DNA of 64,000 bases from Elusimicrobiota bacterium (GCA_016194745.1 JACQBA010000013.1:320822-384821); one strand, 5' to 3'. Shown: positions 2-47,386, counted from the stretch's first letter. Notes: a model not told the origin generated them from the letters alone. Numbers and translations are program-made.

Positions 2-739
2 GTGCGCGCGTCCTACTACGATGAGGCGAAGGAGCAGGTCGACCATCTCTACGACGCCGGCGCGCCGAAGATCGCGGTGCTCTATCAGAACGACGCGTTC
101 GGGAACGCGGTGCTCGAAGGCGTCAAGAAGGCGATGAAGGCTCACGGCGCCGAGCCGGTCGCCTTGGGCTCCTTCCCGCGCGGAACGCTGGACGTCGATG
201 AGGGCATCAAGTCGGTGAAGTCGGCGAAGCCGGACGCCGTCGTGCTCGTCGGACCCTACGCGCCGCTCGCGGAGATCGTCAAGCGCGCGAAGGCCGGCGG
301 ATTTAGCCCCCTGTTCACCACCGTCTCGTTCGTTGGAACCGAGGCATTCATCAAGGCCTCGGGCAAGGACGGCGAGGGCACCGTGATCACGCAGGTCGTC
401 CCTCCGCCGGACCGGACGGACCTCAAGACCGTAGCCCTGTACCGCAAGCTCCTCAAGGAGAAGGAAAAGGACGCCGAGCCCAACTTCGTGAGCCTCGAAG
501 GCTTCGTCGACGCGATGGTGATGGTCGACGGCCTTCGCAAGGCCGGCAAGGACCTCACGCGCGAGGGCTTCATCGACGCGATCGAGACGATCAAGGACTT
601 GGACATGGGACTCGGCAAGAACCTGATGATCAGCTACGGACCGGACGACCACGAGGGCTTCAAGCAGCTCTATCCCACGGTGGTCAAGGACGGAAAGGCC
701 GTCGTGTTCACGGACTGGAAGTCCGTGCTGCCGAAATGA
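2..739 (+). CDS. Periplasmic substrate-binding protein (type-1 PBP, Liv/ANF-receptor-like), 5'-truncated by the window edge
   Basis: Translation is lysine/aspartate-rich and non-shadow, with PBP-like motifs ([26 protein letters not shown]). Its stop overlaps the MCP start (ATGA at 736-739). Confidence 0.6.
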
Positions 740-2277
740 CGAACATCGGCGGCATCAAGAAACTCGGGCTCACGGCGAAGCTGACGATTCCGTTCGCCTG
801 CATCCTTCTGACGACGGTAGCGGTGCTGGGCGGCGTATTCGTCAGCAGCAGCAAACAGAACCTCAACTCCAGCCTTCAGAAGAAGGGCGAGATCCTCGCC
901 CGCAACCTCGCGACCGCCTTGAGCGATCCGTTCTCCATGGGCGAATACGACCATATCCAGCGCCTCCTCAAGGAGGCGCACGACGCCGACACCGACATCG
1001 TCTACGCCACGGTGGTAGGACAGGACGGCAAGTGCATCGCGAGCACGGAAGAGAGCCTCAAGAACCAAACTCTCAACCGCACGGACCTCGAGCTGGCGGC
1101 GCTCAAGACGATGGAATTCACGCGCCGCGATACGCAGCAGCCGAGCATCTTCGAACTGGACACGCCGATCAAGTTCCAAGCGAACCGGCTGGGCGTGCTC
1201 CGCATCGGCGTCTCGACGTCGGCGGCCGACCGCGTGGTCTCTCGGGCGCAGGTCACGTTCACGCTCATCGGAGCCATCGCGCTCGTGCTGGGCGTGCTCA
1301 TCTACGTCTACGTCGCGCGGCGCGTCGCGGCGCCTCTCGTGGCGGCGGTGGTGCGTCTCGAGGAGCTCGCCGCCGGCGGCGCGGACCTGAACGTCCGCCT
1401 CCCCGTCGAGTCCGAGGACGAGGTCGGACAGCTGTCGAAGGCGTTCAACACGTTCCTGGACAGCTTGAGCCGGCTGGTGGACCAGGTCCGCGGCGCGTCG
1501 GAGCAGGTCGGCGGATCGAGCAAGACGCTGACCGAGATCACGCAGCAGTCCTCCGCAAATCTCAGCCAGTCCGTCCAAGTCATGAATCAGGTGTCGCAGA
1601 GCACGGGCCAGGTGGCGCAAAGCGCCCAACTCGTGGCCACGGCGACGCAGCAGGCCGGATCGAACGCCCAGCAGGGCGGAAAGCTCGTGTCGAAGGTCGT
1701 CGAACGCATGAAGCTGGCCGAAGCCTCCGTCGACGCCGCCGCGGGCTTCATCCATGAGCTTGGAAAACGATCCGACCAGATCGGCAAGATCGTCGACGTC
1801 ATCACGAAAATCGCCGACCAGACGAACCTTCTCTCGCTCAACGCGGCCATCGAAGCCGCGCGCGCGGGCGAGGCGGGCCGCGGATTCGCGGTCGTCGCCG
1901 AAGAGATTCGAAAGCTGGCCGAGACGTCCGCCGACAGCACCCAACAGATCACGAACCTGATCCGAGAGGTCCAGGACCAGACGCGCAACGCGATCCAGAC
2001 GACGGAGAAAGGCAACAAAGAGGTGGCCGAAAGCTACAAGATCACCTTGGAGGCCGAGAAGCTTTTCTCCGAGATCGCCCGAGAGGTCGGCCAAATCAAT
2101 ATGCAGATGTCCCAGGTCGCCTCCAATACCCAGCAGGTCGCGGCGTCGACCGAGGAAGCCACCGCCTCGAGCGAGGAGCAGTCCGCGGCGATCGAGCAGA
2201 TCGCCACGAACGCCCAAGAGCTGTCGCAGATCGTGCAGAAGCTTCGCTCGATCGTCGCGCAGTTCAGGACCGGCTGA
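736..2277 (+). CDS. mcp: Methyl-accepting chemotaxis protein (TM1, ~150-aa periplasmic sensor, TM2, HAMP, MCP signalling domain)
   Basis: Two hydrophobic segments flank a periplasmic region. HAMP is followed by a Q/S/A-rich methylation region and the conserved signalling tip ([32 protein letters not shown]). Confidence 0.9.
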
Positions 2278-2289
2278 GCAGGGTACGCG

Positions 2290-3375
2290 CTACGGTTTGG
2301 AGTTGATGCCGGCGAGCTTGCGCGGCGGATAGCCGACACGCACCCAGACCTCGCCGGTCGCGGTGAAGAGCTCCACGGTACGTCCCGTGACGCCTCCCAC
2401 GTCCTCCTCGAGGCAGCGGATGCCGGTCTTCTTGAACTGTTCGCGGGCCACTTCCATGTTGCGCTTGCCGACCTGCAGGTGCGGGTTGGCGAGCTTCGGG
2501 AACATGTTCGCGCCGCCGACGAGCCATCCGACCAAAGTGGCCGGGGACGCGTTGATGCGCTTGAGCAGCGCCGGGATGGCGATGTCCGCGTATTTTCCCG
2601 GCCTCGCCGAGACCGACTTGTCGACGGCGGAGGCCAGCGGCAGCATGACGTGCGCCAGGCCCCCGGTCTTCGTCTTCGTGTCGTAGAGGATGACAGCCAT
2701 GCACGAGCCGAGACTGGCCACCTTCAGGATCGACGGGCTCCGGGCGACTTGGACGTCGCCCATCGCGACGTCGATGCGCGACACCGGCGACTGAGCCATG
2801 AGCACGTCGACGTGGGCGACGGACTCGCGCGTCAGACACATCATGAAATAGCCCTTCGAGTTCCACCCGGGACAGATGATCTCCGCCTGGAAGACCACCG
2901 GCTCGCCGGGCGCCGCCGCCTGCGGAAGAAGCAGCATGTTCCAGATCGTGGCGAACGTGTCGCGCACGAGCTTCGGGGGCGCAGTGAAGATGTTGAGCGC
3001 GAGCGATCGAGAGGGCAGGCCGATGACGCCGCTTCCGAAGACGTTGCCGGCTTCCTCGATCGCCGAGCCGTAGAGGTCCTGCTTCTTGTCCTTGATCGGC
3101 TGCCCTTGCCCGATGAGCGTCGCCGCCAATCGATCGGCGTCCGCCTCGGGAAACATGAGCAGCATGTTCCCGTAGACGTCTCCGGTCAACCCCAGGAACA
3201 CCCCGGCCATCTGCGCCGTCGGCGACGCGAAGCCCGGAGGCCGTCCCTTCTCCATGACCGCCAGGTGGACGGGCGTGGGATGAAATGAGAGCCCGGGCGC
3301 CATGCGGGATAGCCCGTGTGAGGCGTAGATGAGTCCTTCGTTTAGAGTCTTCGAGAACTGATCAAGATTATTCAA
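2290..3375 (-). CDS. cheCD: CheC/CheX-like phosphatase domain fused to CheD chemoreceptor glutamine deamidase (TTG start)
   Basis: The N-terminal half has CheC-like motifs (EAGNVFGSGVIGL). The C-terminal half is CheD-like (LGSCMAVILYD...GGLAHVMLP). The reverse complement of the start region gives TTG-AAT-AAT-CTT (MNNL). Confidence 0.75.
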   Translation of the reverse strand: MNNLDQFSKTLNEGLIYASHGLSRMAPGLSFHPTPVHLAVMEKGRPPGFASPTAQMAGVFLGLTGDVYGNMLLMFPEADADRLAATLIGQGQPIKDKKQDLYGSAIEEAGNVFGSGVIGLPSRSLALNIFTAPPKLVRDTFATIWNMLLLPQAAAPGEPVVFQAEIICPGWNSKGYFMMCLTRESVAHVDVLMAQSPVSRIDVAMGDVQVARSPSILKVASLGSCMAVILYDTKTKTGGLAHVMLPLASAVDKSVSARPGKYADIAIPALLKRINASPATLVGWLVGGANMFPKLANPHLQVGKRNMEVAREQFKKTGIRCLEEDVGGVTGRTVELFTATGEVWVRVGYPPRKLAGINSKP

Positions 3376-5380
3376 AGAAGACTCTCACCTCGGCGTCGTG
3401 GTGAAGAGGAGAGGTAAAGCCCGCGCTCTCGCCGTTGATGAGAAGACGGAGCCGCTTGCCGGGCACGGCCGACAGATTCATCGGGACGTGGCGGAACAAG
3501 TCGAACAGCATGACCCGCTCGCCGGGACCCGCGGCCGGCTGCAGGACGATCTCCTCCCCGTTGAGGCGCACGCGCAGGGAGTTGAAAGGCAACGGCGCTT
3601 CGGGCAACGGCTCGGGAAACGGCAGGGACGGCTCCGACACGCTCACGTCGAGCTGGTCGCCGGCGCACAGCACCGAACTCCTGGACGCCGGAGCCCCGTT
3701 GAGAAGGACCTTCAGCGTCACGGACGAACTGTCGTGGCGATGGCCCCGCGAATGGTGCATGAACTTCTCGGCGGCCTCCCACGCGGTCGCCGGAGAGTCC
3801 CACGCGATGCGAGCGCGATCCGGGAGCTCCGCGTCCAAGTTGCAATGCGCGCCGTCCAAGAGCGCGTTCGGGAAGACCGTCTGCAGGTCCCCGTTGATGC
3901 GCACTTGGACCGCCGCCTCGGCGAGCGCCTCGCGCAGGGTCGCGATGCCCTCGGCCCCAGAGGAACCGGGTTCGAACTTGATCCGGTCGTTCTCGCGCAG
4001 TTCACGGTCCAAGCCCGCCGGCTGCCCGTTGACGGAGATGCGGCCCCGGCTGCCGGGGAATCCGCGCACGGCGCGCACCTTTCCATTCAACGTATACGTA
4101 CGCGCGGGACCGGGCCGGCCGTAAATCTGGTCGGGGGGCACGCCCGCGGCGACGAACGCCGCCTGCACCGTCAGCGTCGCCCCGCTGTCGAGCAGATGGA
4201 CCGGCTTCTCATTGAGATACACCCGGCGAAACCGCAAGCCCGCCTTGTCGCGCGCCACGAGAGCAATCCCGAGCGGCGTCACGGCCTGAGGCGTGCTCAT
4301 CGCGGGCGATGCCGACTGGATCGAAGGAGCGCGGAAACCCACTCTGTCCCGTTCGATGCCGAGAGCGTCCGAGATGGCGTCCTCGATGCCCGGCGTGAGG
4401 CTGCCTCCTCCCACGCAGACAACGAGCTGCGGCGCCTGTCCTCCCGCGAGATCAAGGATGTGCGCGGCGATCTGACGGGCCAGCTCCTTTACGGCCGGCT
4501 CCAGGCCGCGGCGGATCTCGGCGGGGGCGAAGTGCCTCGGACGATGGAAAAGGTCCAGCGCTTCGATCGGGCCCTCCGACGCCAGCGAGCACTTCAGGCG
4601 TTCGGCGGTGAAGAAATCGACGAGGCATTGGTCGCTGATCCGATCCGTCACGAAGTCGCCCGCCATCGGCACCATGCCGAACGCCCGGACGCGTCCTTCG
4701 CGGACGATCGCGATATCAGAGGTCCCCGCGCCGATGTCGACGAGCGCGAGATGGAAGCGGCGCAGCCCTTCGGGAACCGCCGCCTGCAAGGCCGCGATGG
4801 GCTCGAGCGTCACGCACAGGGCCTCCAAGCCGGACGCCTCGAGCACGCTGAAAAGACTGTCGAGCACGCGTCGCGGCAGGAACGTGGCCAGCACCTCGGC
4901 CTCGAGCGTCTCTCCGACGTGGCCGACCGGCTGCGATAGCGTCTCCCCGTCGAGCGAGAACCACGTCACGACGTAGCCGACGCATTGATGATACTGCGCG
5001 CTGGCGTCCGAGGGCCCGAGCTGCCGCTGGGCCTCCTGCAGCGCCTGCTGCACGCACCATTGGGAGTCCTCGGCGGTCACCTGCTGGGGACGCGCGAACG
5101 GGAGCTTGGCGCGCCCGCGGACGGTCTTGAGATTGCGTCCGGCGACCGCGACCGCCGCCTTGGTCGGGATTTTTCCGCAGCGCGCCTCCAGCGCGGCGAT
5201 CGTTTCGCGGACGACCGCCGCCACTCGCGGCACGTCCTGAATCTGCCCGGCGCTCATGGAGCGCGTCGGATGCTCCACGAGCTCCGCGTCGTCCACGACC
5301 ACGCCGTCTCCTTCCGCTCGGGCGAGCAGGCCCATCACCTTGCGCGTCCCGATGTCCAGCGCGAATATCCTTTCCGTCAT
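3368..5380 (-). CDS. FtsA/PilM/EutJ-like actin-fold (ASKHA) ATPase with ~290-aa C-terminal extension of tandem beta-grasp (ThiS/MoaD- or S4-like) repeats
   Basis: The N-terminal FALDIGTRKV is an actin-fold phosphate-1 motif. LALVDIGAGTSDIAIV and VVCVGGGSLTPGIEDAISDALG match FtsA/PilM phosphate-2 and adenosine motifs. The C-terminus carries 5-6 repeats with an hxhxhNGxxh...GDxhxh pattern. The ATG overlaps the cheA stop (ATGA at 5377-5380). Confidence 0.6.
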   Translation of the reverse strand: MTERIFALDIGTRKVMGLLARAEGDGVVVDDAELVEHPTRSMSAGQIQDVPRVAAVVRETIAALEARCGKIPTKAAVAVAGRNLKTVRGRAKLPFARPQQVTAEDSQWCVQQALQEAQRQLGPSDASAQYHQCVGYVVTWFSLDGETLSQPVGHVGETLEAEVLATFLPRRVLDSLFSVLEASGLEALCVTLEPIAALQAAVPEGLRRFHLALVDIGAGTSDIAIVREGRVRAFGMVPMAGDFVTDRISDQCLVDFFTAERLKCSLASEGPIEALDLFHRPRHFAPAEIRRGLEPAVKELARQIAAHILDLAGGQAPQLVVCVGGGSLTPGIEDAISDALGIERDRVGFRAPSIQSASPAMSTPQAVTPLGIALVARDKAGLRFRRVYLNEKPVHLLDSGATLTVQAAFVAAGVPPDQIYGRPGPARTYTLNGKVRAVRGFPGSRGRISVNGQPAGLDRELRENDRIKFEPGSSGAEGIATLREALAEAAVQVRINGDLQTVFPNALLDGAHCNLDAELPDRARIAWDSPATAWEAAEKFMHHSRGHRHDSSSVTLKVLLNGAPASRSSVLCAGDQLDVSVSEPSLPFPEPLPEAPLPFNSLRVRLNGEEIVLQPAAGPGERVMLFDLFRHVPMNLSAVPGKRLRLLINGESAGFTSPLHHDAEVRVFFE

Positions 5381-7149
5381 ACCAGCCCCCGCACGTCGAG
5401 GATAAGCACCACTCGGCCGTCGCCGAGAATGGTGCAGTTGCTCACGCCGCGCACGTGGCGGAGCAGTCCGCTCAGGTTCTTCATGACGATCTCCCGCCGG
5501 TCGACGACCTCGTCTACGAACATGGCCGCCTTGCCGCGAGCGACGCGGATGACTACGCCGTAGCCGCCTTCCGGGCGGATCCCTCCCTCGAACTCCGAGA
5601 GGCCGAACACCCGACGGACGTCCACCATGGGGACGACTTCCCCCCGCAGCGAGATGACCGGCGCCTTGTCGACGGTCTTCGTCATCACGACATCGAGCGA
5701 GACGAGCTCGAGCACGTCGGCGATGGGTAGAGCGAAGGTGTCTTTGCCGACGCGCACGAGCAGCGCTTGAATGATCGCCAAATTGAGCGGGAGGAACAGG
5801 GAGACCCGCGATCCCTTCCCCAGGGTCGAGACGATCTCGAGGCGTCCGTTGACGCTGTCGATCACGCGCTGGACGACGTCCATCCCGACGCCGCGGCCCG
5901 AGATTTCCGTGACCTTCTCCGCGGTCGAGAATCCCGGGTGGCAGACCACGTAGAGGATGTCCGCGTCGGACGTCCGCGCGGCCTCGTCCTCCGTCATCAC
6001 GCCGCGGCTCACGGCCAGCTGGCGGATGCGTGCCGGGTTCATGCCCTTGCCGTCGTCGACGACCTCGACCACGGCGTAGCCCTGGTCCCGGCGGGCGCGC
6101 AAGATGAGCTTGCCTTCTCCGGACTTTCCCGCCTTGACCCGCTCCTCAGGCGTCTCGATGCCGTGGTCGATGGCGTTGCGCAGCAGGTGCACGAGAGGCT
6201 CGTTGATGTTATAGAGGAGAAGCCGGTCGACCGAAATCCCCTGGTCCTGGATCTCGAAGTTGATCTTCCGCTTGAGCTGGTTCGACGTGTCGCGCACGAT
6301 GCGCCGATAATGCTCGAAGATCTCGGACACCGGCACCGTGCGCGTGTCGAGCGCCTCCTGCTGGAGCTGCTGGACGAGCCGCTCGAAAATCTTCAGCTCA
6401 TCCTCGATGACGCCGACGCGCAGCGTCTGCGCCTGCTGGATGAGCCTGGCCTTGGAAATCGTTAGCTCCTCGACCAGGTTCATGATGTTGTCGAGATGCT
6501 TGAGCCCGACGCGCACGGTGGTCCGCGACGAGGAATCCTCGGCGACCGCGGTGCCGGGCGCTTTCGCCTCGGGCGCGGGCTTGGGAGCCTCGGCAGCGGG
6601 CTTCGGCGGCTCGGTCTTGGCCGCCGGCGCGGGAGCCGCGGACGCGGGAGGCGTGAACGTCCCTCCCCAGGCCGCCTCGGGTGACACGGCGCGCGACTCC
6701 GGATCGGGCTTGGCGGGCGCGGGAGCCGCGGCGGCGGCGGCGGGAGCCGCGGCGTCTCCGGCGGCCGGGGCGGCGGCGGCGGCTTTGAGCCGCGCCAGCG
6801 CCGGAGCGATGTCGATCCCGAGCTCCTTGCCTTCCCGGACCTCCGCCAGAAGGCTGGCCAGCACATCCACGCACGCCAGCAGCGCATCGAACATGGCCAG
6901 CGTCGCCTTCCCTTCTCCTTTCGACAGCGGATCGAGGCAGTCCTCGACCGCGTGCGCCAGCTCGGTCATCTTCTGCAGACCCATCGTGGCCGCGTTGCCC
7001 TTCAGGGTGTGAACGTGCCGGAAGATGGCATGCAGCAGTTCGACGTTGCCGAGGTCCTTTTCCAGCTGCACGAGGGCCTTCTCGGTCTGCCCGAGGAGGT
7101 CCTCGGCCTCGCCGATGAATACGTCCTTGAACTCGGAAAAATCGGTCAT
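5377..7149 (-). CDS. cheA: Chemotaxis histidine kinase CheA (Hpt, Pro/Ala-rich linker, dimerisation, HATPase_c, CheW-like; no recognisable P2)
   Basis: The Hpt motif is HAIFRHVHTLKGNAATMG. The kinase core has NAIDHGIE, DDGKGM and GRGVGMDVV, and the C-terminus is CheW-like. The ORF track extends far upstream (874 aa of Arg-rich junk); the plausible start is the internal ATG at 7149, overlapping the cheB stop. Confidence 0.9.
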   Translation of the reverse strand: MTDFSEFKDVFIGEAEDLLGQTEKALVQLEKDLGNVELLHAIFRHVHTLKGNAATMGLQKMTELAHAVEDCLDPLSKGEGKATLAMFDALLACVDVLASLLAEVREGKELGIDIAPALARLKAAAAAPAAGDAAAPAAAAAAPAPAKPDPESRAVSPEAAWGGTFTPPASAAPAPAAKTEPPKPAAEAPKPAPEAKAPGTAVAEDSSSRTTVRVGLKHLDNIMNLVEELTISKARLIQQAQTLRVGVIEDELKIFERLVQQLQQEALDTRTVPVSEIFEHYRRIVRDTSNQLKRKINFEIQDQGISVDRLLLYNINEPLVHLLRNAIDHGIETPEERVKAGKSGEGKLILRARRDQGYAVVEVVDDGKGMNPARIRQLAVSRGVMTEDEAARTSDADILYVVCHPGFSTAEKVTEISGRGVGMDVVQRVIDSVNGRLEIVSTLGKGSRVSLFLPLNLAIIQALLVRVGKDTFALPIADVLELVSLDVVMTKTVDKAPVISLRGEVVPMVDVRRVFGLSEFEGGIRPEGGYGVVIRVARGKAAMFVDEVVDRREIVMKNLSGLLRHVRGVSNCTILGDGRVVLILDVRGLV

Positions 7150-8204
7150 CGGGGCGCGAGCTCCTCGACGCGCTTGACGCTCGCGACGATGGCCCCGGCG
7201 ATCTTGTCGATCGGCAGGATGTGGTCCACGAGGTTCGCGTCGGAGACCGCCTTGGGCATGCCGTAGACGAAGCTGGTCTTCTCGTCCTGGGCGATCGTAA
7301 TGCCGCCCCCTTCCTTGATCTTGCGCATTCCCTCCACCCCGTCCGAGCCCATGCCGCTCAGGACGACTCCGATGCAGCGCCGACCGTACAACAAGGCCGC
7401 CGTCGCCATGCTCGCATCGATCCACGGCTTGATGTTGATCGGCGACGCGTTCGTCGTGGACTGCCCCACCGCGCCCCAGCCGCCGCGCACCCACTCCACC
7501 TTGAGGATGTCGTCGCCGGGAGCGACGTACACGGTGCCCTCGACGAACACGTCGCCGGGATTGGCGACCTTGACGCTGATCTCGGAGATCGACGCGAGAT
7601 GAGACGTCATCTGGCGCGTGAAGGCGATGGGAAGATGCTGCACGATCAAGATGGACGCCGCGAGGTTCTTCGGAAGTTTCGGGACGATCTCGCGAAGGTG
7701 CACCGGACCGCCGGCGGAGGAGCCGATCACGACCATCGTCTTGGCGAGCGCGAGTTTCGCCGGCCTGGACGGCGTCTTGGAGAAAAAGGGTTTGAGCTTG
7801 GATTCGTCGATGCTGCCGACCTCGCGCACGCGCGCCACGAGCGCCTCGCGAAACTGAGCCGCGCTGCCCTCGGACTGAGTGGGCTTGACGATGCAGTCGA
7901 TGGCGCCGCTGTCGAGCGCGCGCATGGCGACGGCGCTCTCCGGCTGCGCGACCGAACTGAGGATGATCACGCGGCGGGAGTGCTCGTGGACGAGGTGCCA
8001 AAGGACCTCGAGGCCGTCCATGTCCGGAAGGATCACGTCGAGGGTCACAACGTCGGGATGGAGGGACGCCGCGAGGGCGATCGCCTCCTTGCCGGTTTTC
8101 GCCATGCCGACCACCTGGATCTCGGCATCGCTCTGGAGCGTCTTGGTGACGATCTCCTGCATATAGGTCGAGTCCTCGACCACCAGGACACGGACTCGCT
8201 TCAT
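7146..8204 (-). CDS. cheB: Protein-glutamate methylesterase CheB (REC + methylesterase)
   Basis: MKRVRVLVVEDSTYMQ...DVILPDMDGLEV is the REC domain. The methylesterase domain has GSSAGGP...QHLP and GMGSDG. The start was chosen at the internal ATG 8204, abutting the cheY stop. Confidence 0.9.
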   Translation of the reverse strand: MKRVRVLVVEDSTYMQEIVTKTLQSDAEIQVVGMAKTGKEAIALAASLHPDVVTLDVILPDMDGLEVLWHLVHEHSRRVIILSSVAQPESAVAMRALDSGAIDCIVKPTQSEGSAAQFREALVARVREVGSIDESKLKPFFSKTPSRPAKLALAKTMVVIGSSAGGPVHLREIVPKLPKNLAASILIVQHLPIAFTRQMTSHLASISEISVKVANPGDVFVEGTVYVAPGDDILKVEWVRGGWGAVGQSTTNASPINIKPWIDASMATAALLYGRRCIGVVLSGMGSDGVEGMRKIKEGGGITIAQDEKTSFVYGMPKAVSDANLVDHILPIDKIAGAIVASVKRVEELAPR

Positions 8205-8572
8205 GAAAGGACTTTCGTGATCGCCTTCTCGATCTCCGTCCAATCCACCGGCTTGTGCACGATCGCGGAGACGCCGAGCTCCTTCGCCTGATCGATCTCC
8301 GAGCTTCCGTAGAGCGCGCTCACCACCACGATCTTGGCTTTCGGATCCATCGCATACAGCGCCTTGATCGCCTCCACGCCGCCGCCGTCCGGCATGACGA
8401 TGTCCATCGTCACGACGTCCGGTTTCACCTTCTTGTACAGATCGACCGCCTCCGACGGCCCTGACGCAGACCCTACCACGTTGAAGCCGTGGGTCTCTAA
8501 CATACGCTGGAGGATCATGCGGGCGTACGTGGAATCATCGACAATGAGAACGCGGCGTGTTGAAGTTGTCAA
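8201..8572 (-). CDS. cheY: Chemotaxis response regulator CheY (TTG start)
   Basis: Single REC domain of 123 aa (VLIVDDSTYAR...DVVTMDIVMPDGGG...KIVVVSA). The start-region reverse complement reads TTG ACA ACT TCA. Confidence 0.85.
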   Translation of the reverse strand: MTTSTRRVLIVDDSTYARMILQRMLETHGFNVVGSASGPSEAVDLYKKVKPDVVTMDIVMPDGGGVEAIKALYAMDPKAKIVVVSALYGSSEIDQAKELGVSAIVHKPVDWTEIEKAITKVLS

Positions 8573-9405
8573 GAAACCTCCTGGTCGGAGTCGATTTTCG
8601 TGTAGATCTTGTGTTCCCTGTCGACCGTCTTGAAAATCCCATGCAGCAAGACGATCTCAGAGGCGCCCAGGATCAAGATGCCGCGAGGCGTCAGGCACCG
8701 GTGAAATCTGTGAAGGATCTGGTTCTTGGCGGGCGTTGTGAAATAGATCATCACGTTGCGGCACAAGATCAGATCGATGTGGTCGATCGGCGGGTGCGTC
8801 GCCAGGTCATGCCGCTTGAACTGGACCTTCTTCACCAGGCTGTCGGCTACCTGCACCTTGTCCCCGTGATCGCGGAGATACTTGGACCGGTAGTGGGCGG
8901 GCACCGCGGACATGGCCGCCTTCGGATAGAGGCCGGGCCGCGCGGCCTTCAGTTGCTCCTCGTTGAAATCGGTCGCCAGGATCTGGTACTTGAGACCGAG
9001 GGACGCGCGCTGCGTTACGTAGGAATCGACCACCATCGCGACCGTGTAGGGCTCCTGGCCGGTGGCGCATCCGGCGCTCCAGATCACCATGGGGCGGATC
9101 TGGGTTCCCGAGCGGGACCAGAGCCCGTCGAAGATAGGATTGAGCGTCTTCTCGGACAGCTCGTTGTCGCGAAAGAACCCGGTGACGTTGATCGTCAGGG
9201 AATCGATGAGCTTCTGGTATTCCACGGGCGTCTTTGCCAGCAGCCCCATGTAATCCTTGAACGTCCCGATCTGGTTGTGGCCCATCCGCGCCAAAAGCCG
9301 GCGCTCCAAGAACGCGTCGCTGTATTGGGACAGGTCGAGGCCCCGAGTATCGACGAGATGGCGTTTCAGCTTCTCCAAGTCCTCGGGTGCCAATAACGTC
9401 GCCAT
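8569..9405 (-). CDS. cheR: Chemotaxis protein methyltransferase CheR
   Basis: The CheR N-terminal helix domain is followed by a SAM-dependent methyltransferase domain (VTGFFRDNE, IWSAGCATGQEPYTVAM). Confidence 0.9.
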   Translation of the reverse strand: MATLLAPEDLEKLKRHLVDTRGLDLSQYSDAFLERRLLARMGHNQIGTFKDYMGLLAKTPVEYQKLIDSLTINVTGFFRDNELSEKTLNPIFDGLWSRSGTQIRPMVIWSAGCATGQEPYTVAMVVDSYVTQRASLGLKYQILATDFNEEQLKAARPGLYPKAAMSAVPAHYRSKYLRDHGDKVQVADSLVKKVQFKRHDLATHPPIDHIDLILCRNVMIYFTTPAKNQILHRFHRCLTPRGILILGASEIVLLHGIFKTVDREHKIYTKIDSDQEVS

Positions 9406-9415
9406 TGGATTGAGG

Positions 9416-9913
9416 TCAGCCAGCGGCTTTCTCCATGCTCTCCAGTAGCTTGCGCTCGATGTCGTTGAGCATCTTCGTCAAATCGATTAGGACCACCAGC
9501 CGGTCCTCCATCTTGCCGACGCCGTAGAGGAACTCGGCGTCCATCCGGGGAAGGGTCGACGGGACGGGGTCCACGGAATCGGACATGAAGCGCACGACGC
9601 CGCTGACCTCGTCCACGATCAAGCCGATGAGCTGCTCGCCCAAGAAGGAGACGATTACGCGCTGATTCGCTTCCTCGACCTTCCCTCCGGCCGTGATCTC
9701 GAAGCGCTCCTTGAGGTCGAGCAGCGGGACGATCTTTCCGCGGAGATTGAACACGCCCTTGATGAACTTCGGCATCCGCGGGACGTGGGTGACGCTGGAA
9801 TAGCGCGAGATCTCCTGCACCTGCGTGGCCGGCACCCCGTATTCCTCTATGCCGAGCTTGAAGATCACCCACTGCGAAGCCTGCACCGCCGTCTTCGGGC
9901 TCTTCTGATCCAT
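9416..9913 (-). CDS. cheW: Chemotaxis coupling protein CheW
   Basis: ~165-aa CheW-like domain (WVIFKLGIEEYGVPATQVQEI...FIKGVFNLRGKIVPLLDL). The ORF-track N-terminus (Arg/His-rich) was rejected; the start was set at the ATG at 9913. Confidence 0.85.
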   Translation of the reverse strand: MDQKSPKTAVQASQWVIFKLGIEEYGVPATQVQEISRYSSVTHVPRMPKFIKGVFNLRGKIVPLLDLKERFEITAGGKVEEANQRVIVSFLGEQLIGLIVDEVSGVVRFMSDSVDPVPSTLPRMDAEFLYGVGKMEDRLVVLIDLTKMLNDIERKLLESMEKAAG

Positions 9914-9915
9914 GC

Positions 9916-10329
9916 CTACCCCCTCGGCGGCAGAGCGATGAATTCCCGCAGTTTGGACTCGAGCCGATCCATGTGCAGCGGCTTGACCAAGTACCCGTTG
10001 GCGCCGCTTTCCCTGGCCTTGTCGACGTCCTTCACGCGGTCCGTGCCGGTGAGCATGATGACCGGGATCGTCCGCGTGTTTTCCCGCTGACGGAGAGCAA
10101 GCGTGGTGGCGAAGCCGTCCATCTGCGGCATCATCGCGTCGACGAGAATGAGATCCGGCTTCTGCTCCTCCGCCAGCTTCACGCACTCTTCGCCGCTGAG
10201 GGCCGTGAGCGAGTCGCACCCCAGCTGGAAAAGCATCGCCTTCGTGGTCTCGATGATCAGCGGCGAGTCGTCGACGTGCAGTACGAGAGGCTTTGTACGC
10301 TTCAATCCCAGCATCGATGCGAAGCCCAT
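9916..10329 (-). CDS. Single-domain response regulator receiver (CheY-like)
   Basis: REC domain only (LVLHVDDSPLIIE...DLILVDAMMPQMDGF...VIMLTG...K). Confidence 0.8.
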   Translation of the reverse strand: MGFASMLGLKRTKPLVLHVDDSPLIIETTKAMLFQLGCDSLTALSGEECVKLAEEQKPDLILVDAMMPQMDGFATTLALRQRENTRTIPVIMLTGTDRVKDVDKARESGANGYLVKPLHMDRLESKLREFIALPPRG

Positions 10330-10335
10330 GGTAGT

Positions 10336-11049
10336 TTACCCCACTTGCAGGATAACGGACACGCCCCCCTTCTTTTCATTGGAAATCGAAAGCGAACCGC
10401 CGTGTTCCATCGCGATCTTCCGGGCCCAGCTCAAGCCGAGGCCGCGCCTGCCCTGCTTGTTCGTGAAGAACGGCTGGACCGCGGACTCGAGTATCTCCGC
10501 CGACATAGGGTCTCCGGTATTATGGATCTCGATCGCCGCCTGAGAACCAGCTCCGGTCAGCGACACCGTGACGACGCCCCCCTTGCCGGCCAGAGCGTCG
10601 ACGCAGTTGTCGAGGATCTCCTTGATCGCGCGCGCGAAGAGTTCCTTGTCCATCTGCAGCGTCTTCGGGAAACCGGGGACGATCTTCCATTCGATCTTGA
10701 CCTTGGAGTCAGAACAGATAGGGTGCTGTCCCACGTGCTCCTTGAGCCACGGCTCCACGTCGATGTCCGTGGGTTCCAGGGACAAGGACTGCAGAAGATA
10801 GGATGCTTCTTCTATGTCCTTTAGCGCCTTCTCGGAAGCGTGCCGAAACTGGCCGATCATCTTCGGCGTCATGGTCGACGTGGTCTTGGGCATCATCTCC
10901 AAGCACTCGAAGAATCCGACCACCGCCCCAAGATTATTCCGCAAATTGTGAATAAAATAGCTCCAATCGAATTGGGGCGGCGGGTACGCTCGATTCGCAG
11001 TTTGGGTGCTCACGGGCAAGATTATAGCCTTGAAACGTATATAAATCAA
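10336..11049 (-). CDS. Soluble sensor histidine kinase (HisKA + HATPase_c, no TM or sensor domain detected)
   Basis: H-box FIHNLRNNLGAV. The ATPase core has N-box EILDNCVDA, HNTGDPM and G-box GLGLSWARKIAMEHGG. The N-terminus is translated from an AT-rich region, so the start is uncertain. Confidence 0.7.
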   Translation of the reverse strand: MIYIRFKAIILPVSTQTANRAYPPPQFDWSYFIHNLRNNLGAVVGFFECLEMMPKTTSTMTPKMIGQFRHASEKALKDIEEASYLLQSLSLEPTDIDVEPWLKEHVGQHPICSDSKVKIEWKIVPGFPKTLQMDKELFARAIKEILDNCVDALAGKGGVVTVSLTGAGSQAAIEIHNTGDPMSAEILESAVQPFFTNKQGRRGLGLSWARKIAMEHGGSLSISNEKKGGVSVILQVG

Positions 11050-22520: not shown

Positions 22521-23069
22521 TCAGCTGAAGGACACTTTCGGGACCGCCTTCTCGCCCTCGCCGGCCTGGAAGAACTCCGCCGCGGAGAACCCGAAGGGGC
22601 CGGCCACGAGCCTTCCGGGGAAAACCTCCAGGCTGGTGTTGTAGTCCCTCACCACGGCGTTGTAGAAGCGCCGGGCGTTTTGCAGATCGTTCTCGATATC
22701 CTCTAGGCTCTTCTGCAGCCCGAGGAAGTTCTGGTTGGCCTTGAGGTCGGGATACGCCTCCGCGAGCGCGAAGACCGACTTGAGCGCCTGGGCGAGCCCC
22801 GCCTCCGCCTCGCCGCGGGCCGCCGGCGACGTCGCGGTCATCGTCTGACCGCGAAGCCGGACGACGCTCTCGAGGGCCCCCTTCTCGTGCGACGCGTAGC
22901 CCTTGACGGTCTCAACGAGGTTCGGGATCAAGTCGTACCGGCGCTTGAGCTGGGCGTCGATGTCCGCCCAAGCGGATTTGCTGCGCACGCGCAGCGTGGC
23001 CATGTTATTGAAGACTCCGATCGCCCAAATCGCCGCCACGACCGCGACACCAAGGAAAACCCACATCAT
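22521..23069 (-). CDS. lemA: LemA family protein
   Basis: N-terminal TM plus LemA domain (NNMATLRVRSKSAWADIDAQLKRRYDLIPNLVETVKGYASHE...RRFYNAVVRDYNT). Confidence 0.85.
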   Translation of the reverse strand: MMWVFLGVAVVAAIWAIGVFNNMATLRVRSKSAWADIDAQLKRRYDLIPNLVETVKGYASHEKGALESVVRLRGQTMTATSPAARGEAEAGLAQALKSVFALAEAYPDLKANQNFLGLQKSLEDIENDLQNARRFYNAVVRDYNTSLEVFPGRLVAGPFGFSAAEFFQAGEGEKAVPKVSFS

Positions 23070-23085
23070 ATGCGCCTCCTATCCG

Positions 23086-25008
23086 TCACCAGCCTCCGCC
23101 TCCCCCTCCGCCGCCGCCGCCGCCCGACGAGCCGCCGCCCCCGCCGCCGAAGCTCGAGCCCGAGCTCTCGCCCGGAGCCGTCGACGACGACGAGATGGCG
23201 CTCGAGACCGAGTCGCCGATGTGAGAGCAGAAGGACGGCGAGCCGTAGCTGTCCCAGCGGCGGCCCGAATACCACGCGGGCTGATACGGCTGCCCGTCCT
23301 GCCCGGCTTTCGCCAGCACGTCCGCGAAGCGCTCCGCCCATTGATGCTCCACGTCGAGCGCGAGCGCGTACGGCAGATACTTCTCGAACATCGCGGGCGT
23401 CCGGTCGACGGGATACAGGACGTTCAGCCGGTCCTTCTCCGTCGCGGCCAAGAACATCTTGAAGCCCTCGATCTTGTCCATCAGGGCGCGCCCGGCCAGC
23501 GTCGGTGCCTTCAGGAGATGGTAGAAAAGATAGTTCATCGCGGCGAGGGCCACCGCGAACAGGGGCAGCGAAATCCCGACTGGGCCCATCACGAAGAAGA
23601 CGACGGCCGCCTCGCCCAGCGTGAACGGGACGAAGAACAACGAGAGGAAGAGGAGCTTCGCGTAGTCCCCCGCGGCGCCTGTCGCGGAGGCGTGGCTCCA
23701 CTGAAGCATCACGGTACGTCCGAGTGCGGCGACTCCCAAGGTCCACCCCGTGAGCACGACGCACACCATCAGGGCCGCCGGGGTCTCCTGCGCCTCGGTG
23801 GCGAGCGCGGTCAAGAGCAGCCCCGCGATCGACATGACGAGCCCTCCGGCGAAGTAATGGATATTGGTGATGAAATAGAGCGTCTCGTTCCTGGACTTCA
23901 GGATCTGCTCGAGCCCCGAGACAGCCATGGCGATCGGGGCGTGGTTCGACTGTTTGAGAACGATCGAGTCGCGGCCCGCGAAGAGGGAGGAGGCGATCGC
24001 CTTTTCCTCGTCGTTGAGCACGCCGTAGTCTCCGACCTTGGTCAGCGTGTACTCGCGGCTGCTTTCCTCCATCTTGAGGAAGCCCTTCACGGCCATGTTG
24101 ATGAGCGTGGCGCCGAAGATTTTTTCGTCGTAGCCCATCTGTGAGATGAAGCGGGAGCTCCCCGGCGACACGCCCTTGGGGGGTTCGTATATGGCCATGA
24201 TGCTCCCCGCCTCGGGGTCCTTCCCGAACTTGGACCATACGAGCACGTAATAGCCGAACACGAGCAGCACCGTCGCGGCGCCGGCGAGCGCGCCGCGGTT
24301 GTCCTTGAAAAAGTAGCGCGCTTTGTCGGCGAGGGGCGGCGGCGTGACGAACCCCTTGGGCCACGCGACGACGATCGTCATGCCTTCCGCGGGGCCGAGC
24401 GGGCGCGTCGTCTTGAACACGGGATGGCCGGCCTCGTCCGCGTCGAGGGCATAGGCCTGGTTCTTCGAGCCTTGGACGCCGGTATAGGCGTTTTTCTCCA
24501 AGAGCTTTTCCCCCGGAACGGGCACCTCCACGATCGCGACGGCTTCGTCGATCGTGAACATCCAGCCGTTGCCGGTCGCGTTCCAGTACAGCTCGTCGTG
24601 GTCCTTGAAGAACCCGAGCTGCCGGCTCGTCTCGTAGCCGAGCGTGTACATGTACTCGCCCGGCTGGAGCAGCACGTCCTTGCTCCCGATATAGACGCGT
24701 TCGCCGTTGCCGCGATGCTCGACGCGGTAGGGTTCCGGCGCCTCGTTCTTCTTCACATCGGCGACCCGGAACTCCACGTTGTAGTGGTGGCCGAGCCGGT
24801 CCTTATAGCTCGTGGGAAAGTCCCGGTAAATGCCGCGCTTGATCGCGCGGCCGGCGGCCCGGACCTTGATCGTCTCTTGGACGAACATCGAGCCGTCCGG
24901 GCGCACGGAGATGCGGCTCTCGAACTTGAGGATGCGCTCGTCCTGGGCGCGCGCGGGCGCCGCCCAGAGCAGCGCGAGAACGACCGCGGCCGCCTTCATC
25001 ATGCGCAC
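23086..25008 (-). CDS. DUF2207-family membrane protein (LemA partner) with C-terminal poly-Gly/Ser tail
   Basis: Signal peptide, large extracytoplasmic domain, 3-4 TM segments, C-terminal GSSFGGGGGGSSGGGGGGGGGGGW. Conserved LemA-DUF2207 gene pair. Confidence 0.7.
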   Translation of the reverse strand: MRMMKAAAVVLALLWAAPARAQDERILKFESRISVRPDGSMFVQETIKVRAAGRAIKRGIYRDFPTSYKDRLGHHYNVEFRVADVKKNEAPEPYRVEHRGNGERVYIGSKDVLLQPGEYMYTLGYETSRQLGFFKDHDELYWNATGNGWMFTIDEAVAIVEVPVPGEKLLEKNAYTGVQGSKNQAYALDADEAGHPVFKTTRPLGPAEGMTIVVAWPKGFVTPPPLADKARYFFKDNRGALAGAATVLLVFGYYVLVWSKFGKDPEAGSIMAIYEPPKGVSPGSSRFISQMGYDEKIFGATLINMAVKGFLKMEESSREYTLTKVGDYGVLNDEEKAIASSLFAGRDSIVLKQSNHAPIAMAVSGLEQILKSRNETLYFITNIHYFAGGLVMSIAGLLLTALATEAQETPAALMVCVVLTGWTLGVAALGRTVMLQWSHASATGAAGDYAKLLFLSLFFVPFTLGEAAVVFFVMGPVGISLPLFAVALAAMNYLFYHLLKAPTLAGRALMDKIEGFKMFLAATEKDRLNVLYPVDRTPAMFEKYLPYALALDVEHQWAERFADVLAKAGQDGQPYQPAWYSGRRWDSYGSPSFCSHIGDSVSSAISSSSTAPGESSGSSFGGGGGGSSGGGGGGGGGGGW

Positions 25009-35664: not shown

Positions 35665-36849
35665 CTAAATCTTGCCTACGTACAGCTCGCGCCAGAGGCG
35701 GTAGTACTCCTTGAGATAGTCCTCGTAGCCCGGCTGGAGGGATACGCCCTTGAAGTCGAGGATCGCGAGGGAGCGGGACATGACGACGTAATCCCGGCCG
35801 CGCCCCGTCCGCGTGTCCCAGCGCATCGCGGGATAGTAGCCGGATGGGATGAACCGCGCGCTGAGCGCCTGCCGGATCCCCTCCGGATCGCGGGCGTCTG
35901 CGAGCAGCTCCAAGTAGCGCACACCCATGCCCTCGAGGCATGCGGCCGCGTGCTCGAGGAGTTGGCGCAGCTCCAAGGTCAGCGAGTACGCGCCCGTGAA
36001 CACGCAATGGCCGTCCTTGGCCGAGCGGTAGAGATAGACTTCGGTGCGTCCGTCGGGACTGACGAGCAGCAGGTTCGGCTCGTGGAACGGGAAGAAATCG
36101 AGCGAGAGTTTTCCCGCCGCCTTCGTCTCCGCCCAGCGCCGCAGGATGAACTTGGACGCCTGCAGGACCTCGAAGGCGAGCGGCGTGCCGTCGACGCCGT
36201 CGAGTAGGAGCGGGAGGTCCGCGTACTCCGCCTCGTCGATGCCGGACTCGCGGCGGACGATCGAGAAGAAGGGCTTGAGCGAGAGCGGCAGGCAGGGAGT
36301 CCCCTCGCGGAACTGCATCACGCCCGGCGCGAAGCGTACCGCGAGCGTGTGCGTCTCGGACTTGTAGACCTTGTGGACGTTGGGGAACACGCCGAGCTTG
36401 AGGAACCCGGCCTTCTCGGCGAGACGCTGCGGGCCGAGACTCACCGTGCGCACCGTCGCATAGGTGGTGCGGGCGATCTGGTCCTTCCCGCTCAGGATCT
36501 CGAGGCCGGCCACCATGAGCTTTTCGGCCACGTCGCAGCGGCGGTAGTCCTCGGCCACGACCGCGCCGAACGCCTTGGCGAGACGCACCTGCCGGTCGAC
36601 GTTGAAGAGCAGGCTGCCCACCACCTTGCCCTCGGCGCGCGCCAGAAGCCAGACGTAGCGGTCGCTCTCAATGGCCTGCTGGCACTCCTGCGGATTGTAG
36701 ACGAGAGAAAAGGGGTAGCTTCCGCCGTAGACGAGATGGTAGAGCCAGCGGATGCCGAGGACGTCGTCAGGAACGGCGGGGCCGATCGTGATCGCCCGGC
36801 CGTCCGACAGACGGATATCCTCCGACGGAGGGCGCTCGGCGAGCTCCAT
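35665..36849 (-). CDS. GNAT-family acyltransferase, tandem two-domain architecture
   Basis: The N-terminal GNAT core is DVAEKLMVAGLEILSGKDQIARTTYATV...AGFLKLGVF, followed by a second ~180-aa domain. Confidence 0.55.
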   Translation of the reverse strand: MELAERPPSEDIRLSDGRAITIGPAVPDDVLGIRWLYHLVYGGSYPFSLVYNPQECQQAIESDRYVWLLARAEGKVVGSLLFNVDRQVRLAKAFGAVVAEDYRRCDVAEKLMVAGLEILSGKDQIARTTYATVRTVSLGPQRLAEKAGFLKLGVFPNVHKVYKSETHTLAVRFAPGVMQFREGTPCLPLSLKPFFSIVRRESGIDEAEYADLPLLLDGVDGTPLAFEVLQASKFILRRWAETKAAGKLSLDFFPFHEPNLLLVSPDGRTEVYLYRSAKDGHCVFTGAYSLTLELRQLLEHAAACLEGMGVRYLELLADARDPEGIRQALSARFIPSGYYPAMRWDTRTGRGRDYVVMSRSLAILDFKGVSLQPGYEDYLKEYYRLWRELYVGKI

Positions 36850-47264: not shown

Positions 47265-47318
47265 CAATGCCTGCAAATCGAAATTGATCGACTTGCAGGC
47301 ATCCTAACAAATGGTGGG
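47265..47318. repeat. Direct repeat copy 2, overlapping the 3' end of tRNA-Val and its downstream hairpin
   Basis: aatgcctgcaaatcgaaattgatcgacttgcaggcatc...aaatggtgggc. Confidence 0.6.
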
Positions 47319-47386
47319 CAGTACAGGATTCGAACCTGTGACCCCTGTCGTGTGAGGACAGTGCTCTACCGCTGAGCTAACTGCCC
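47312..47386 (-). tRNA. tRNA-Val (anticodon CAC), CCA encoded
   Basis: Reverse complement reads GGGCAGTTAGCTCAGCGGTAGAGCACTGTCCTCACACGACAGGGGTCACAGGTTCGAATCCTGTACTGCCCACCA. Anticodon loop is CTCACAC. Confidence 0.85.

Follow-up and report, generated by a model that had tools for sequence, protein, structure and literature searches.

Organization of the chemosensory cluster

The window analyzed here—64,000 nucleotides of an Elusimicrobiota bacterium (GCA_016194745.1, JACQBA010000013.1:320822-384821)—begins with a chemosensory (che) gene cluster that occupies positions 2 to 11,049 and encodes, in addition to the usual Che proteins, an FtsA-like ATPase with a tandem ubiquitin-like (Ubl) tail, termed FtsAL. 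Nine genes form an operon on the minus strand in the order histidine kinase (HK), a second single-domain receiver (RR2), CheW, CheR, CheY, CheB, CheA, FtsAL and a CheC-CheD fusion (CheCD), with successive gaps of 6, 2, 10, -4, -4, -4, -4 and -8 nt. The FtsAL gene overlaps both of its neighbours, sharing 4 nt with the end of CheA at its start and 8 nt with the beginning of CheCD at its stop. A periplasmic binding protein and a methyl-accepting chemotaxis protein (MCP), whose stop and start share 4 nt, are encoded on the plus strand and converge on this operon. Taken together, these observations make it likely that the region constitutes a single functional chemosensory system from a derived, F1-like lineage—the signature of which is an FtsAL gene that accompanies those for CheA and a phosphatase of the CheC type.

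All core signalling and adaptation components are encoded, i.e., MCP, CheW, CheA, CheY, CheB, CheR, CheC and CheD. The co-occurrence of MCP, CheW and CheA identifies a Che system, and CheR, CheB and the modification sites of the receptor identify an adaptation branch. The catalytic motifs are intact for CheA (His47), CheB (Ser/His/Asp, as read from the sequence), CheD (Cys/His) and one CheC site. CheY retains the DD pair, a D57-like residue, S and K, has Ile at the Tyr106 position, and is preceded by AGGAGG upstream of a TTG start. The chemosensory gene cluster is real and complete. An earlier note on this DNA had listed its genes, and every one of them was found by Pfam and NCBIfam searches; the gene content likewise supports its description of a self-contained Che cluster with an actin-fold ATPase. 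One correction to that list is that the binding protein and MCP genes lie on the opposite strand and converge on the operon, as described above. The coordinates of all features are collected in Table 1.

Table 1. Features of the che region, with positions counted from the first nucleotide of the window and the basis of each assignment.
Feature	Position	Strand	Basis
Peripla_BP_6 LivJ-like periplasmic solute-binding protein, C-terminal two thirds	2..739	+	Pfam PF13458 1.6e-30, profile positions 116-342
MCP, transmembrane chemoreceptor	736..2277	+	Pfam HAMP and MCPsignal; PDB alignments
CheC-CheD fusion (CheCD), 361 aa	2290..3375	-	PDB 2f9z_C/2f9z_A matches, NCBIfam, alignment of 14 fusions
FtsAL, FtsA-like ATPase with tandem ubiquitin-like tail, 670 aa	3368..5380	-	AF2, Foldseek
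CheA, 590 aa	5377..7149	-	Pfam Hpt, H-kinase_dim, HATPase_c and CheW domains
CheB methylesterase, N-terminal receiver	7146..8204	-	Pfam; NCBIfam PRK00742 325.7 bits (cut-off 293)
CheY, single-domain receiver	8201..8572	-	Pfam, NCBIfam, motifs
CheR methyltransferase	8569..9405	-	Pfam CheR_N and CheR
CheW coupling protein	9416..9913	-	Pfam CheW 2.6e-36
RR2, second single-domain receiver	9916..10329	-	Pfam; comparison with L008
Soluble DHp+CA histidine kinase core	10336..11013 (GTG) or 11049 (TTG)	-	Pfam HATPase_c, alignment A3
Candidate operon promoter, TTGATT-17 nt-TATAAT	11021..11049	-	10/12 sigma-70-like matches

FtsAL combines an FtsA-type ATPase with a ubiquitin-like tail

The window protein is identical to HY078_11845, a protein of an Elusimicrobia metagenome-assembled genome (MAG). 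An AlphaFold2 (AF2) model built from a 24-sequence alignment had a predicted local distance difference test (pLDDT) value of 86.7, and the best Foldseek matches to residues 1-380 were FtsA structures (template modeling (TM) scores of 0.81-0.86, E ~1e-28), followed by PilM structures with TM scores of 0.65-0.78. The FtsA-type actin-like fold and its nucleotide motifs are thus present, and the model is consistent with an FtsA-type 1C subdomain. Alignment A1 shows invariant residues in the phosphate-1 (D9, G11, T12), phosphate-2 (D215, G217, G219, T220, D222) and adenosine (G324, G325) motifs. Despite this likeness, FtsAL falls below the cut-offs of both families, scoring 104.5 bits against the FtsA model TIGR01174 (cut-off 175.85) and 50.9 bits against the PilM model TIGR01175 (cut-off 133), with a weak PilM_2 match as well. 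Its neighbours are che genes—not ftsZ and the dcw cluster that accompany FtsA, nor pilNOPQ—and the window contains neither pilN nor pilO. Where FtsA ends in an amphipathic membrane helix, FtsAL carries ~290 amino acids of tandem ubiquitin-like domains terminating in ...VRVFFE.

Modeled separately, the last 290 residues (pLDDT 85) form a string of approximately four small beta-grasp domains, with structural matches to bacterial multi-ubiquitin proteins, the tandem Ubl of USP7 (HUBL), ISG15, di-ubiquitin and TGS. A search of 1.84 billion representative proteins with this tail returned 523 clusters at E<=1e-3, almost exclusively proteins of ~650-740 amino acids with the same architecture. Database names within the family are inconsistent and include FtsA, PilM and rod-shape protein. 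Our literature search, which was incomplete in scope, found no report that connects che clusters with a protein resembling FtsA or actin, nor any account of an FtsA-beta-grasp fusion.

Members of the family also occur outside che clusters. In Bacilli (Brevibacillus, Sporosarcina, Kurthia, Oceanobacillus and relatives; loci L013, L020, L023, L027 and ~15 others), a 700-amino-acid FtsA-like/poly-Ubl gene occupies a conserved slot, flanked by aroA, ccpA and acuC and, in the other direction, by ytxJ, ytxG/H-like genes and murC, these neighbours having been identified by reading the sequences. The homologue of Syntrophomonas adjoins mreB. We considered deriving a function from these unlinked Bacillota contexts (aroA, ccpA, ytxJ, murC, mreB), which proved to be of a housekeeping kind and uninformative. 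In a neighbour-joining tree, the che-linked FtsAL proteins group together, apart from the copies of Bacillota and Thermotogae.

Linkage of FtsAL with CheA and CheC across phyla

The linkage of FtsAL to CheA and a CheC-type phosphatase was found in at least 18 loci, distributed over Elusimicrobia, Omnitrophota, Methylomirabilis, Planctomycetales, unclassified bacteria and the archaeal genus Methanolobus. The earlier note had treated the actin-like ATPase as incidental; the comparative data make it a lineage-defining component. An FtsAL gene downstream of CheA, with CheC or CheCD adjacent, was seen at 12 genome or MAG loci (L001, L004, L005, L007, L008, L009, L019, L037, L039, L062, L063 and L060, the last of which is cut at its 5' end and shows no CheA) and at five metagenome che-FtsAL loci (L089, L091, L093, L094 and L121); in L091 and L093, the CheA and FtsAL genes are about 1 and 3.4 kb apart, respectively. 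The CheA proteins of FtsAL-linked clusters share 33-50% identity with each other.

The closest relative of the window cluster is L089, with FtsAL and CheA 51% and 62% identical to their window counterparts and the same inverted MCP arrangement, the receptor being of the PAS type. The L089 cluster is flanked by housekeeping genes, and no motility or pil genes were found among them. A few kb from that cluster, between tgt and queA, L089 also encodes a stand-alone receiver-Hpt protein (8852-9568, minus strand), which could be a phosphorelay intermediate. In L001, another Elusimicrobia MAG, the order is REC-HK, CheW, CheA, FtsAL, CheCD and MCP, and L004 and L008 are similar. The unclassified MAGs L005 and L007 share the order cheW-mcp-cheR-cheY-cheB-cheA-FtsAL-cheC(-cheC-cheD), and directly upstream, on the same strand, they carry a pilM-N fusion, pilO, an unassigned gene and a secretin gene.

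The versions from Omnitrophota (L009, L019, L037), Methylomirabilis (L063) and Methanolobus (L039, L062) share the order P2-bearing CheA, ~205-amino-acid CheC, FtsAL and cheR, with CheC thus placed between CheA and FtsAL, and lack the HK gene. Directly after FtsAL, the three Omnitrophota loci and the Planctomycetales locus L060 have a ComFB-family gene (L019, 12123-12437; L037, 12299-12562; L009, 7973-8236; L060, 1981-2244), assigned by Pfam at E ~1e-27 in L019 and L060 and by size and position alone in L009 and L037. The ComFB family has ties to competence and pili, and to the binding of cyclic dinucleotides.

The archaeal FtsAL copies occur in many cultured Methanolobus species, and their nearest relatives, at ~40% identity, are those of Omnitrophota—which suggests transfer from bacteria. 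Methanolobus clusters (L039 and L062; 5.7-16.7 kb) combine four CheC paralogues with CheD, CheA, CheB, CheR, CheY and FtsAL, and no CheF, CheW, MCP or archaellum gene was found within 10 kb. Methanosarcina che2 regions were considered as further carriers of the module and set aside, as Methanolobus was the only named genus among the archaeal homologues listed.

CheA, the receptor and the CheC-CheD fusion

CheA is composed of P1/Hpt (with His47 in HTLKG, a motif invariant in the CheA alignment), an Ala/Pro linker of ~100 amino acids, and the P3, P4 and P5 domains. The linker (residues 105-206; 37% Ala, 19% Pro) replaces P2. No P2 was detected in it by Pfam at E<=0.01 or by phmmer against the PDB—a search in which the related CheA of a Methanolobus cluster does match the T. 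maritima P2 structure 1u0s. In a 12-sequence alignment, moreover, the Ala/Pro linker of the window CheA stands where the proteins from Methanolobus, Omnitrophota and Methylomirabilis have a P2 block of ~90 residues. These three lines of evidence reveal no P2 hidden in the linker and bear out the earlier note, which had described a CheA without P2 and with a Pro/Ala-rich linker, and had named a P2 revealed by a sensitive search of that linker as the finding that would overturn this description. The weight given there to P2 loss as a distinctive feature is another matter: more than 50% of surveyed CheA proteins have no P2 even by HHpred, its position being taken by a linker that AlphaFold models as disordered (PMC10782961). 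Since the loss is so common, it carries little weight for the window cluster.

The MCP has two transmembrane segments, a ~130-amino-acid periplasmic domain without assignment, a HAMP domain and a signalling domain. The arms of the latter span ~19 heptads, roughly class 38H, with a C-terminal arm of 134 amino acids, and candidate methylation or deamidation sites are TATQQAGS (302), SNTQQVAA (463) and ASSEEQSA (477). A shared receptor class for the che-FtsAL clusters was tried as a lineage marker and rejected: heptad lengths differ among clusters (roughly 38H, 40H and 44H), so that receptor length does not define the lineage. The binding protein encoded next to the MCP, the gene for which is cut by the window edge with its 5' end outside, matches the Leu/Ile/Val-binding protein 4kv7 in the PDB (8e-31).

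The CheC-CheD fusion claimed by the earlier note was likewise confirmed, by PDB alignments and conserved motifs. The C-terminal half of CheCD aligns to T. maritima CheD (2f9z_C, 4e-22), and the CheC of the same species (2f9z_A, 2e-4) is matched by residues 52-150. The CheD half retains GSC (LGSC) and AHVMLP, and the catalytic Cys and His of the deamidase are invariant across 14 fusions (alignment A2). The CheC half keeps the second phosphatase site alone, as SAIEEAGN in the pattern S-x3-E-x2-N-x22-P (E107, E108, N111, P134), with E107, E108 and P134 invariant in the same 14 fusions and the first site degenerate. A word-indexed search of 5.8 billion proteins yielded 24 matches, ~20 of them full-length (340-391 amino acids), and several CheC-CheD fusions share contigs with an FtsA-like gene. 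The fusion is genuine and rare. The public annotation HY078_11840 (337 amino acids) starts this protein 24 codons too late. The longer start, a TTG that overlaps the stop of the upstream gene, is preferred because 13 homologous fusions also have the conserved N-terminal extension that it adds.

The kinase, RR2 and the operon promoter

The HK and RR2 genes are the first two of the operon and not, as the earlier note had it, a pair at its end. RR2 is ~52% identical to the stand-alone 138-amino-acid receivers of the sister cluster L008. The description of the kinase as a soluble HisKA/HATPase protein holds in part: HATPase_c is found by Pfam and the H-box (FIHNLRNN) is conserved, as are the N, F and G2 boxes, but there is no Pfam HisKA match. 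In alignment A3, the kinase is an orthologue of the kinase half of the 348-355-amino-acid REC-HK hybrids in L001, L004 and L008, lacking the ~100-amino-acid receiver of these proteins and carrying NTGDP in the G1 box where they have DTGEG. We interpret the window protein as a truncated derivative of such receiver-kinase hybrids with a degenerate G1 box, the kinase activity of which is doubtful. The loss of the receiver and the NTGDP box make it a weak candidate for the main output, and these traits, together with its place at the operon start, weaken the suggestion that the HK-RR pair is a phosphorelay output.

The candidate promoter lies in an AT-rich, 82-bp divergent intergenic region; 3 such sites were found against 1.4 expected. 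The TTG at 11049, obtained as the kinase start by mechanical calling of open reading frames (ORFs), coincides with the -35 hexamer of the promoter match, which makes the GTG at 11013 the likelier start. This GTG is near the predicted transcription start, so the kinase transcript may lack a leader or carry only a very short one.

Class affinity

Che systems that contain CheC and CheD in archaea, Firmicutes and Thermotoga belong to class F1, which features a 44H chemoreceptor and a P2-bearing CheA, and the alternative cellular function (ACF) class is defined by the hidden Markov models of MiST. The best NCBIfam matches in the window are haloarchaeal models for CheA and CheY and Thermotogales models for CheC and CheD, all below the curated cut-offs, with CheA scoring 424 bits against the haloarchaeal model and 341 against the E. 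coli type. The affinities of the window cluster suggest an F1-like system and do not point to ACF. The full complement of eight Che components is shared with the F1 systems of B. subtilis, T. maritima and archaea, as are the conserved Cys/His of CheD and one CheC phosphatase site. The window differs from them in the fusion of CheC (with a single site) to CheD, in the Ala/Pro linker in place of P2 and in a receptor of ~38H—the 44H receptor and P2-bearing CheA being found in the relatives L063 and L039—as well as in the FtsA-like/poly-Ubl ATPase between CheA and CheCD, the extra kinase and receiver, and the absence of motility genes nearby. From these comparisons, the Elusimicrobia branch appears to be derived, with P2 lost, CheC and CheD fused and the receptors shortened (~38H here).

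A model for the system and its alternatives

The following sequence of events would account for the gene content. The LivJ-like binding protein probably presents a ligand to the MCP, as suggested by translational coupling only (the receptor in L089 is of the PAS type), and the MCP would control CheA via CheW. The P1 domain of CheA would then phosphorylate CheY, CheB and perhaps RR2 directly, at a slower rate without P2 docking, while CheR, CheB and CheD would adapt the receptor at its QQ/EE sites (302, 463, 477) and the CheC half of the fusion would dephosphorylate phosphorylated CheY (CheY-P). A feedback through CheY-P, CheC and CheD is known from B. subtilis and T. maritima, and the covalent link between CheC and CheD would hard-wire it. 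FtsAL is predicted to bind nucleotide and probably self-assembles like FtsA, with its approximately four Ubl domains acting as putative sites for docking other proteins. Its synthesis would be coordinated with that of CheA and CheC(D), and its most likely role is to hold these proteins together in an assembly that depends on nucleotide and that could either organize or position the signalling complex or be the very structure on which CheY-P acts. On current sequence evidence, the best-supported interpretation is that FtsAL is a component of the system, with CheA and the CheC-type protein as its partners. We also put forward, tentatively and at well below even probability, a more far-reaching version in which FtsAL is an unrecognized core accessory of a cross-phylum Che class, an actin-family polymer that would form a CheY-P-responsive output or scaffold in combination with a CheC-type protein.

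Several observations weigh against assigning FtsAL to an F1-like chemosensory system. Most of its homologues (in Bacilli, Clostridia and Thermotogae) have no che linkage, implying that the protein can function independently of Che proteins. Among the 1.84 billion proteins searched, neither FtsAL nor its tail was found fused to Che domains; only family members and one CoaE fusion were returned. The F1 affinity itself derives from NCBIfam scores below cut-off and from relatives, with a window MCP of ~38H rather than 44H and a CheA without P2. Lastly, for this genome the negative result on motility covers the window, and flagella or pili may be encoded elsewhere in the genome. A separate reading—that FtsAL is a housekeeping cytoskeletal protein, placed in the operon by chance and without any role in signalling—would fit the predominance of unlinked homologues, the slot of the Bacilli copies between aroA/ccpA and ytxJ/murC, and the mreB neighbour in Syntrophomonas. 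We regard it as very improbable, however, given that adjacency and order recur in one archaeal genus and no fewer than five lineages of bacteria, in which the other che genes have been extensively rearranged, that the start and stop codons of FtsAL overlap its neighbours on both sides, and that the che-linked copies form a group of their own in the tree.

The alternatives that accept FtsAL as a working part differ mainly in the output. In line with the earlier note, no flagellar, pilus or motor genes were detected among the 33 ORFs of a Pfam survey of the window from 11 to 64 kb (53 kb), nor beside L089. By neighbourhood, the output is not flagellar, and the best candidate, drawn from L005 and L007, is type IV pili. 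Elusimicrobia are generally non-flagellated and pilus-rich. Should FtsAL be a PilM-like cytoplasmic platform that the Che pathway uses to control how pili are assembled or retracted, the pilM-N, pilO and secretin genes directly upstream of che-FtsAL in L005 and L007 would be readily explained, and the weak PilM_2 and TIGR01175 matches, the rank of PilM as second-best fold match and the ComFB-family gene after FtsAL in Omnitrophota and Planctomycetales loci would also agree. Yet FtsA is the better structural match (TM scores of 0.81-0.86 versus 0.65-0.78), the PilM score of 50.9 is far from the cut-off of 133, no pil genes were found in the window or L089, there is no gene for a PilN-like partner, and the architecture does not resemble that of the known Pil-Chp/Tfp class—leaving this specific role for FtsAL rather unlikely.

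A comparably low probability attaches to the ACF-type system proposed by the earlier note, in which CheA feeds a two-component phosphorelay through the kinase/receiver pair, controlling gene expression or development instead of motility. A REC-HK hybrid does occupy the same position in L001, L004 and L008; L001 has no stand-alone CheY, which makes CheA to REC-HK the sole visible route there; and motility genes were not found near the window cluster or L089. There is also a precedent in R. centenum, where CheS3, a hybrid kinase of the REC-HK type like those of these three loci, is phosphorylated on its receiver by CheA3 (PMC3868531). A relay from CheA to REC-HK is accordingly plausible in the relatives. 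The window cluster resembles the Che3 system of R. centenum (CheA3 to CheS3 to CheY3) and that of M. xanthus (Che3/CrdS) in having an HK gene inside the che cluster, but its kinase has no receiver and has the degenerate NTGDP box, its CheA is not a CheA-REC hybrid, and CheC and CheD are present, with F1-like affinities overall. The operon contains no DNA-binding or enzymatic output regulator, and the kinase is missing from the Omnitrophota, Methanolobus and Methylomirabilis versions of the cluster.

Ordinary motility chemotaxis (flagellar, or archaellar in Methanolobus), with FtsAL as an array-positioning or partitioning factor, is an option that we consider unlikely. ParA-like ATPases that position arrays are known from che clusters, i.e., PpfA of R. 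sphaeroides and ParC of Vibrio, and FtsAL resembles them by analogy only, as an NTPase of a polymer-forming superfamily inside a che operon; its fold is of the actin/Hsp70 type and not that of a Walker-type ParA, and there is no ParP-like partner. The full adaptation set, the stand-alone CheY, and a CheC and CheD such as F1 motility systems have would suit such a role, as would the relatives with a T. maritima-like P2 and a 44H-length MCP, and the module is carried by several Methanolobus species, with M. tindarius being motile. Against this, no flagellar or archaellar genes or CheF were found within 10 kb at any locus examined, and the window CheY has Ile at the Tyr106 position.

Other features of the window

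Outside the che region, the window encodes, at 31967-36849 on the minus strand, a LuxC acyl-CoA reductase-AMP-binding fusion (977 amino acids) and, after it, a LuxE acyl-protein synthetase and a GNAT-containing protein. These genes lie where the GC content of the window is highest (0.71-0.73 versus ~0.65) and may represent a fatty-aldehyde/alcohol or lipid-modification cluster, possibly acquired horizontally. Between 46000 and 48000, the GC content drops to 0.57 around a tRNA-Val gene (47312-47386, minus strand) beside a block of secreted peptidases (S41, M48), a dip that may mark an island boundary. A gene pair encoding LemA and a DUF2207 membrane protein (22521-25008, minus strand) belongs to a widespread two-gene module. 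A mobile element or RNA feature was considered and rejected, as the search gave only three tRNAs, far from the che cluster, and no other Rfam match.

Implications

What is new here is a cross-phylum CheA-FtsAL-CheC module, accompanied by a rare CheC-CheD fusion; the loss of P2 is ordinary. T. maritima CheC and CheD were solved in one structure (2f9z), and the fusion makes this partnership obligatory; it is also natural genetic evidence for a CheC-CheD complex that acts as a unit. Che systems are classified by their accessory proteins, including CheC, CheD, CheV, CheX, CheZ, CheF and ParA-like positioning factors, and FtsAL would be an accessory of a new structural type, its gene having been kept beside those for CheA and CheC across Elusimicrobia, Omnitrophota, Methylomirabilis, Planctomycetales and Methanolobus. 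The presence of the module in cultured Methanolobus, together with an unlinked paralogue in culturable Bacilli, renders the question experimentally tractable. The FtsAL module could show how Che pathways are wired to non-flagellar outputs and, if the tentative proposal of a CheY-P-responsive polymer is true, the target of the pathway would be a cytoskeletal filament in place of the usual rotary motor or transcription factor.

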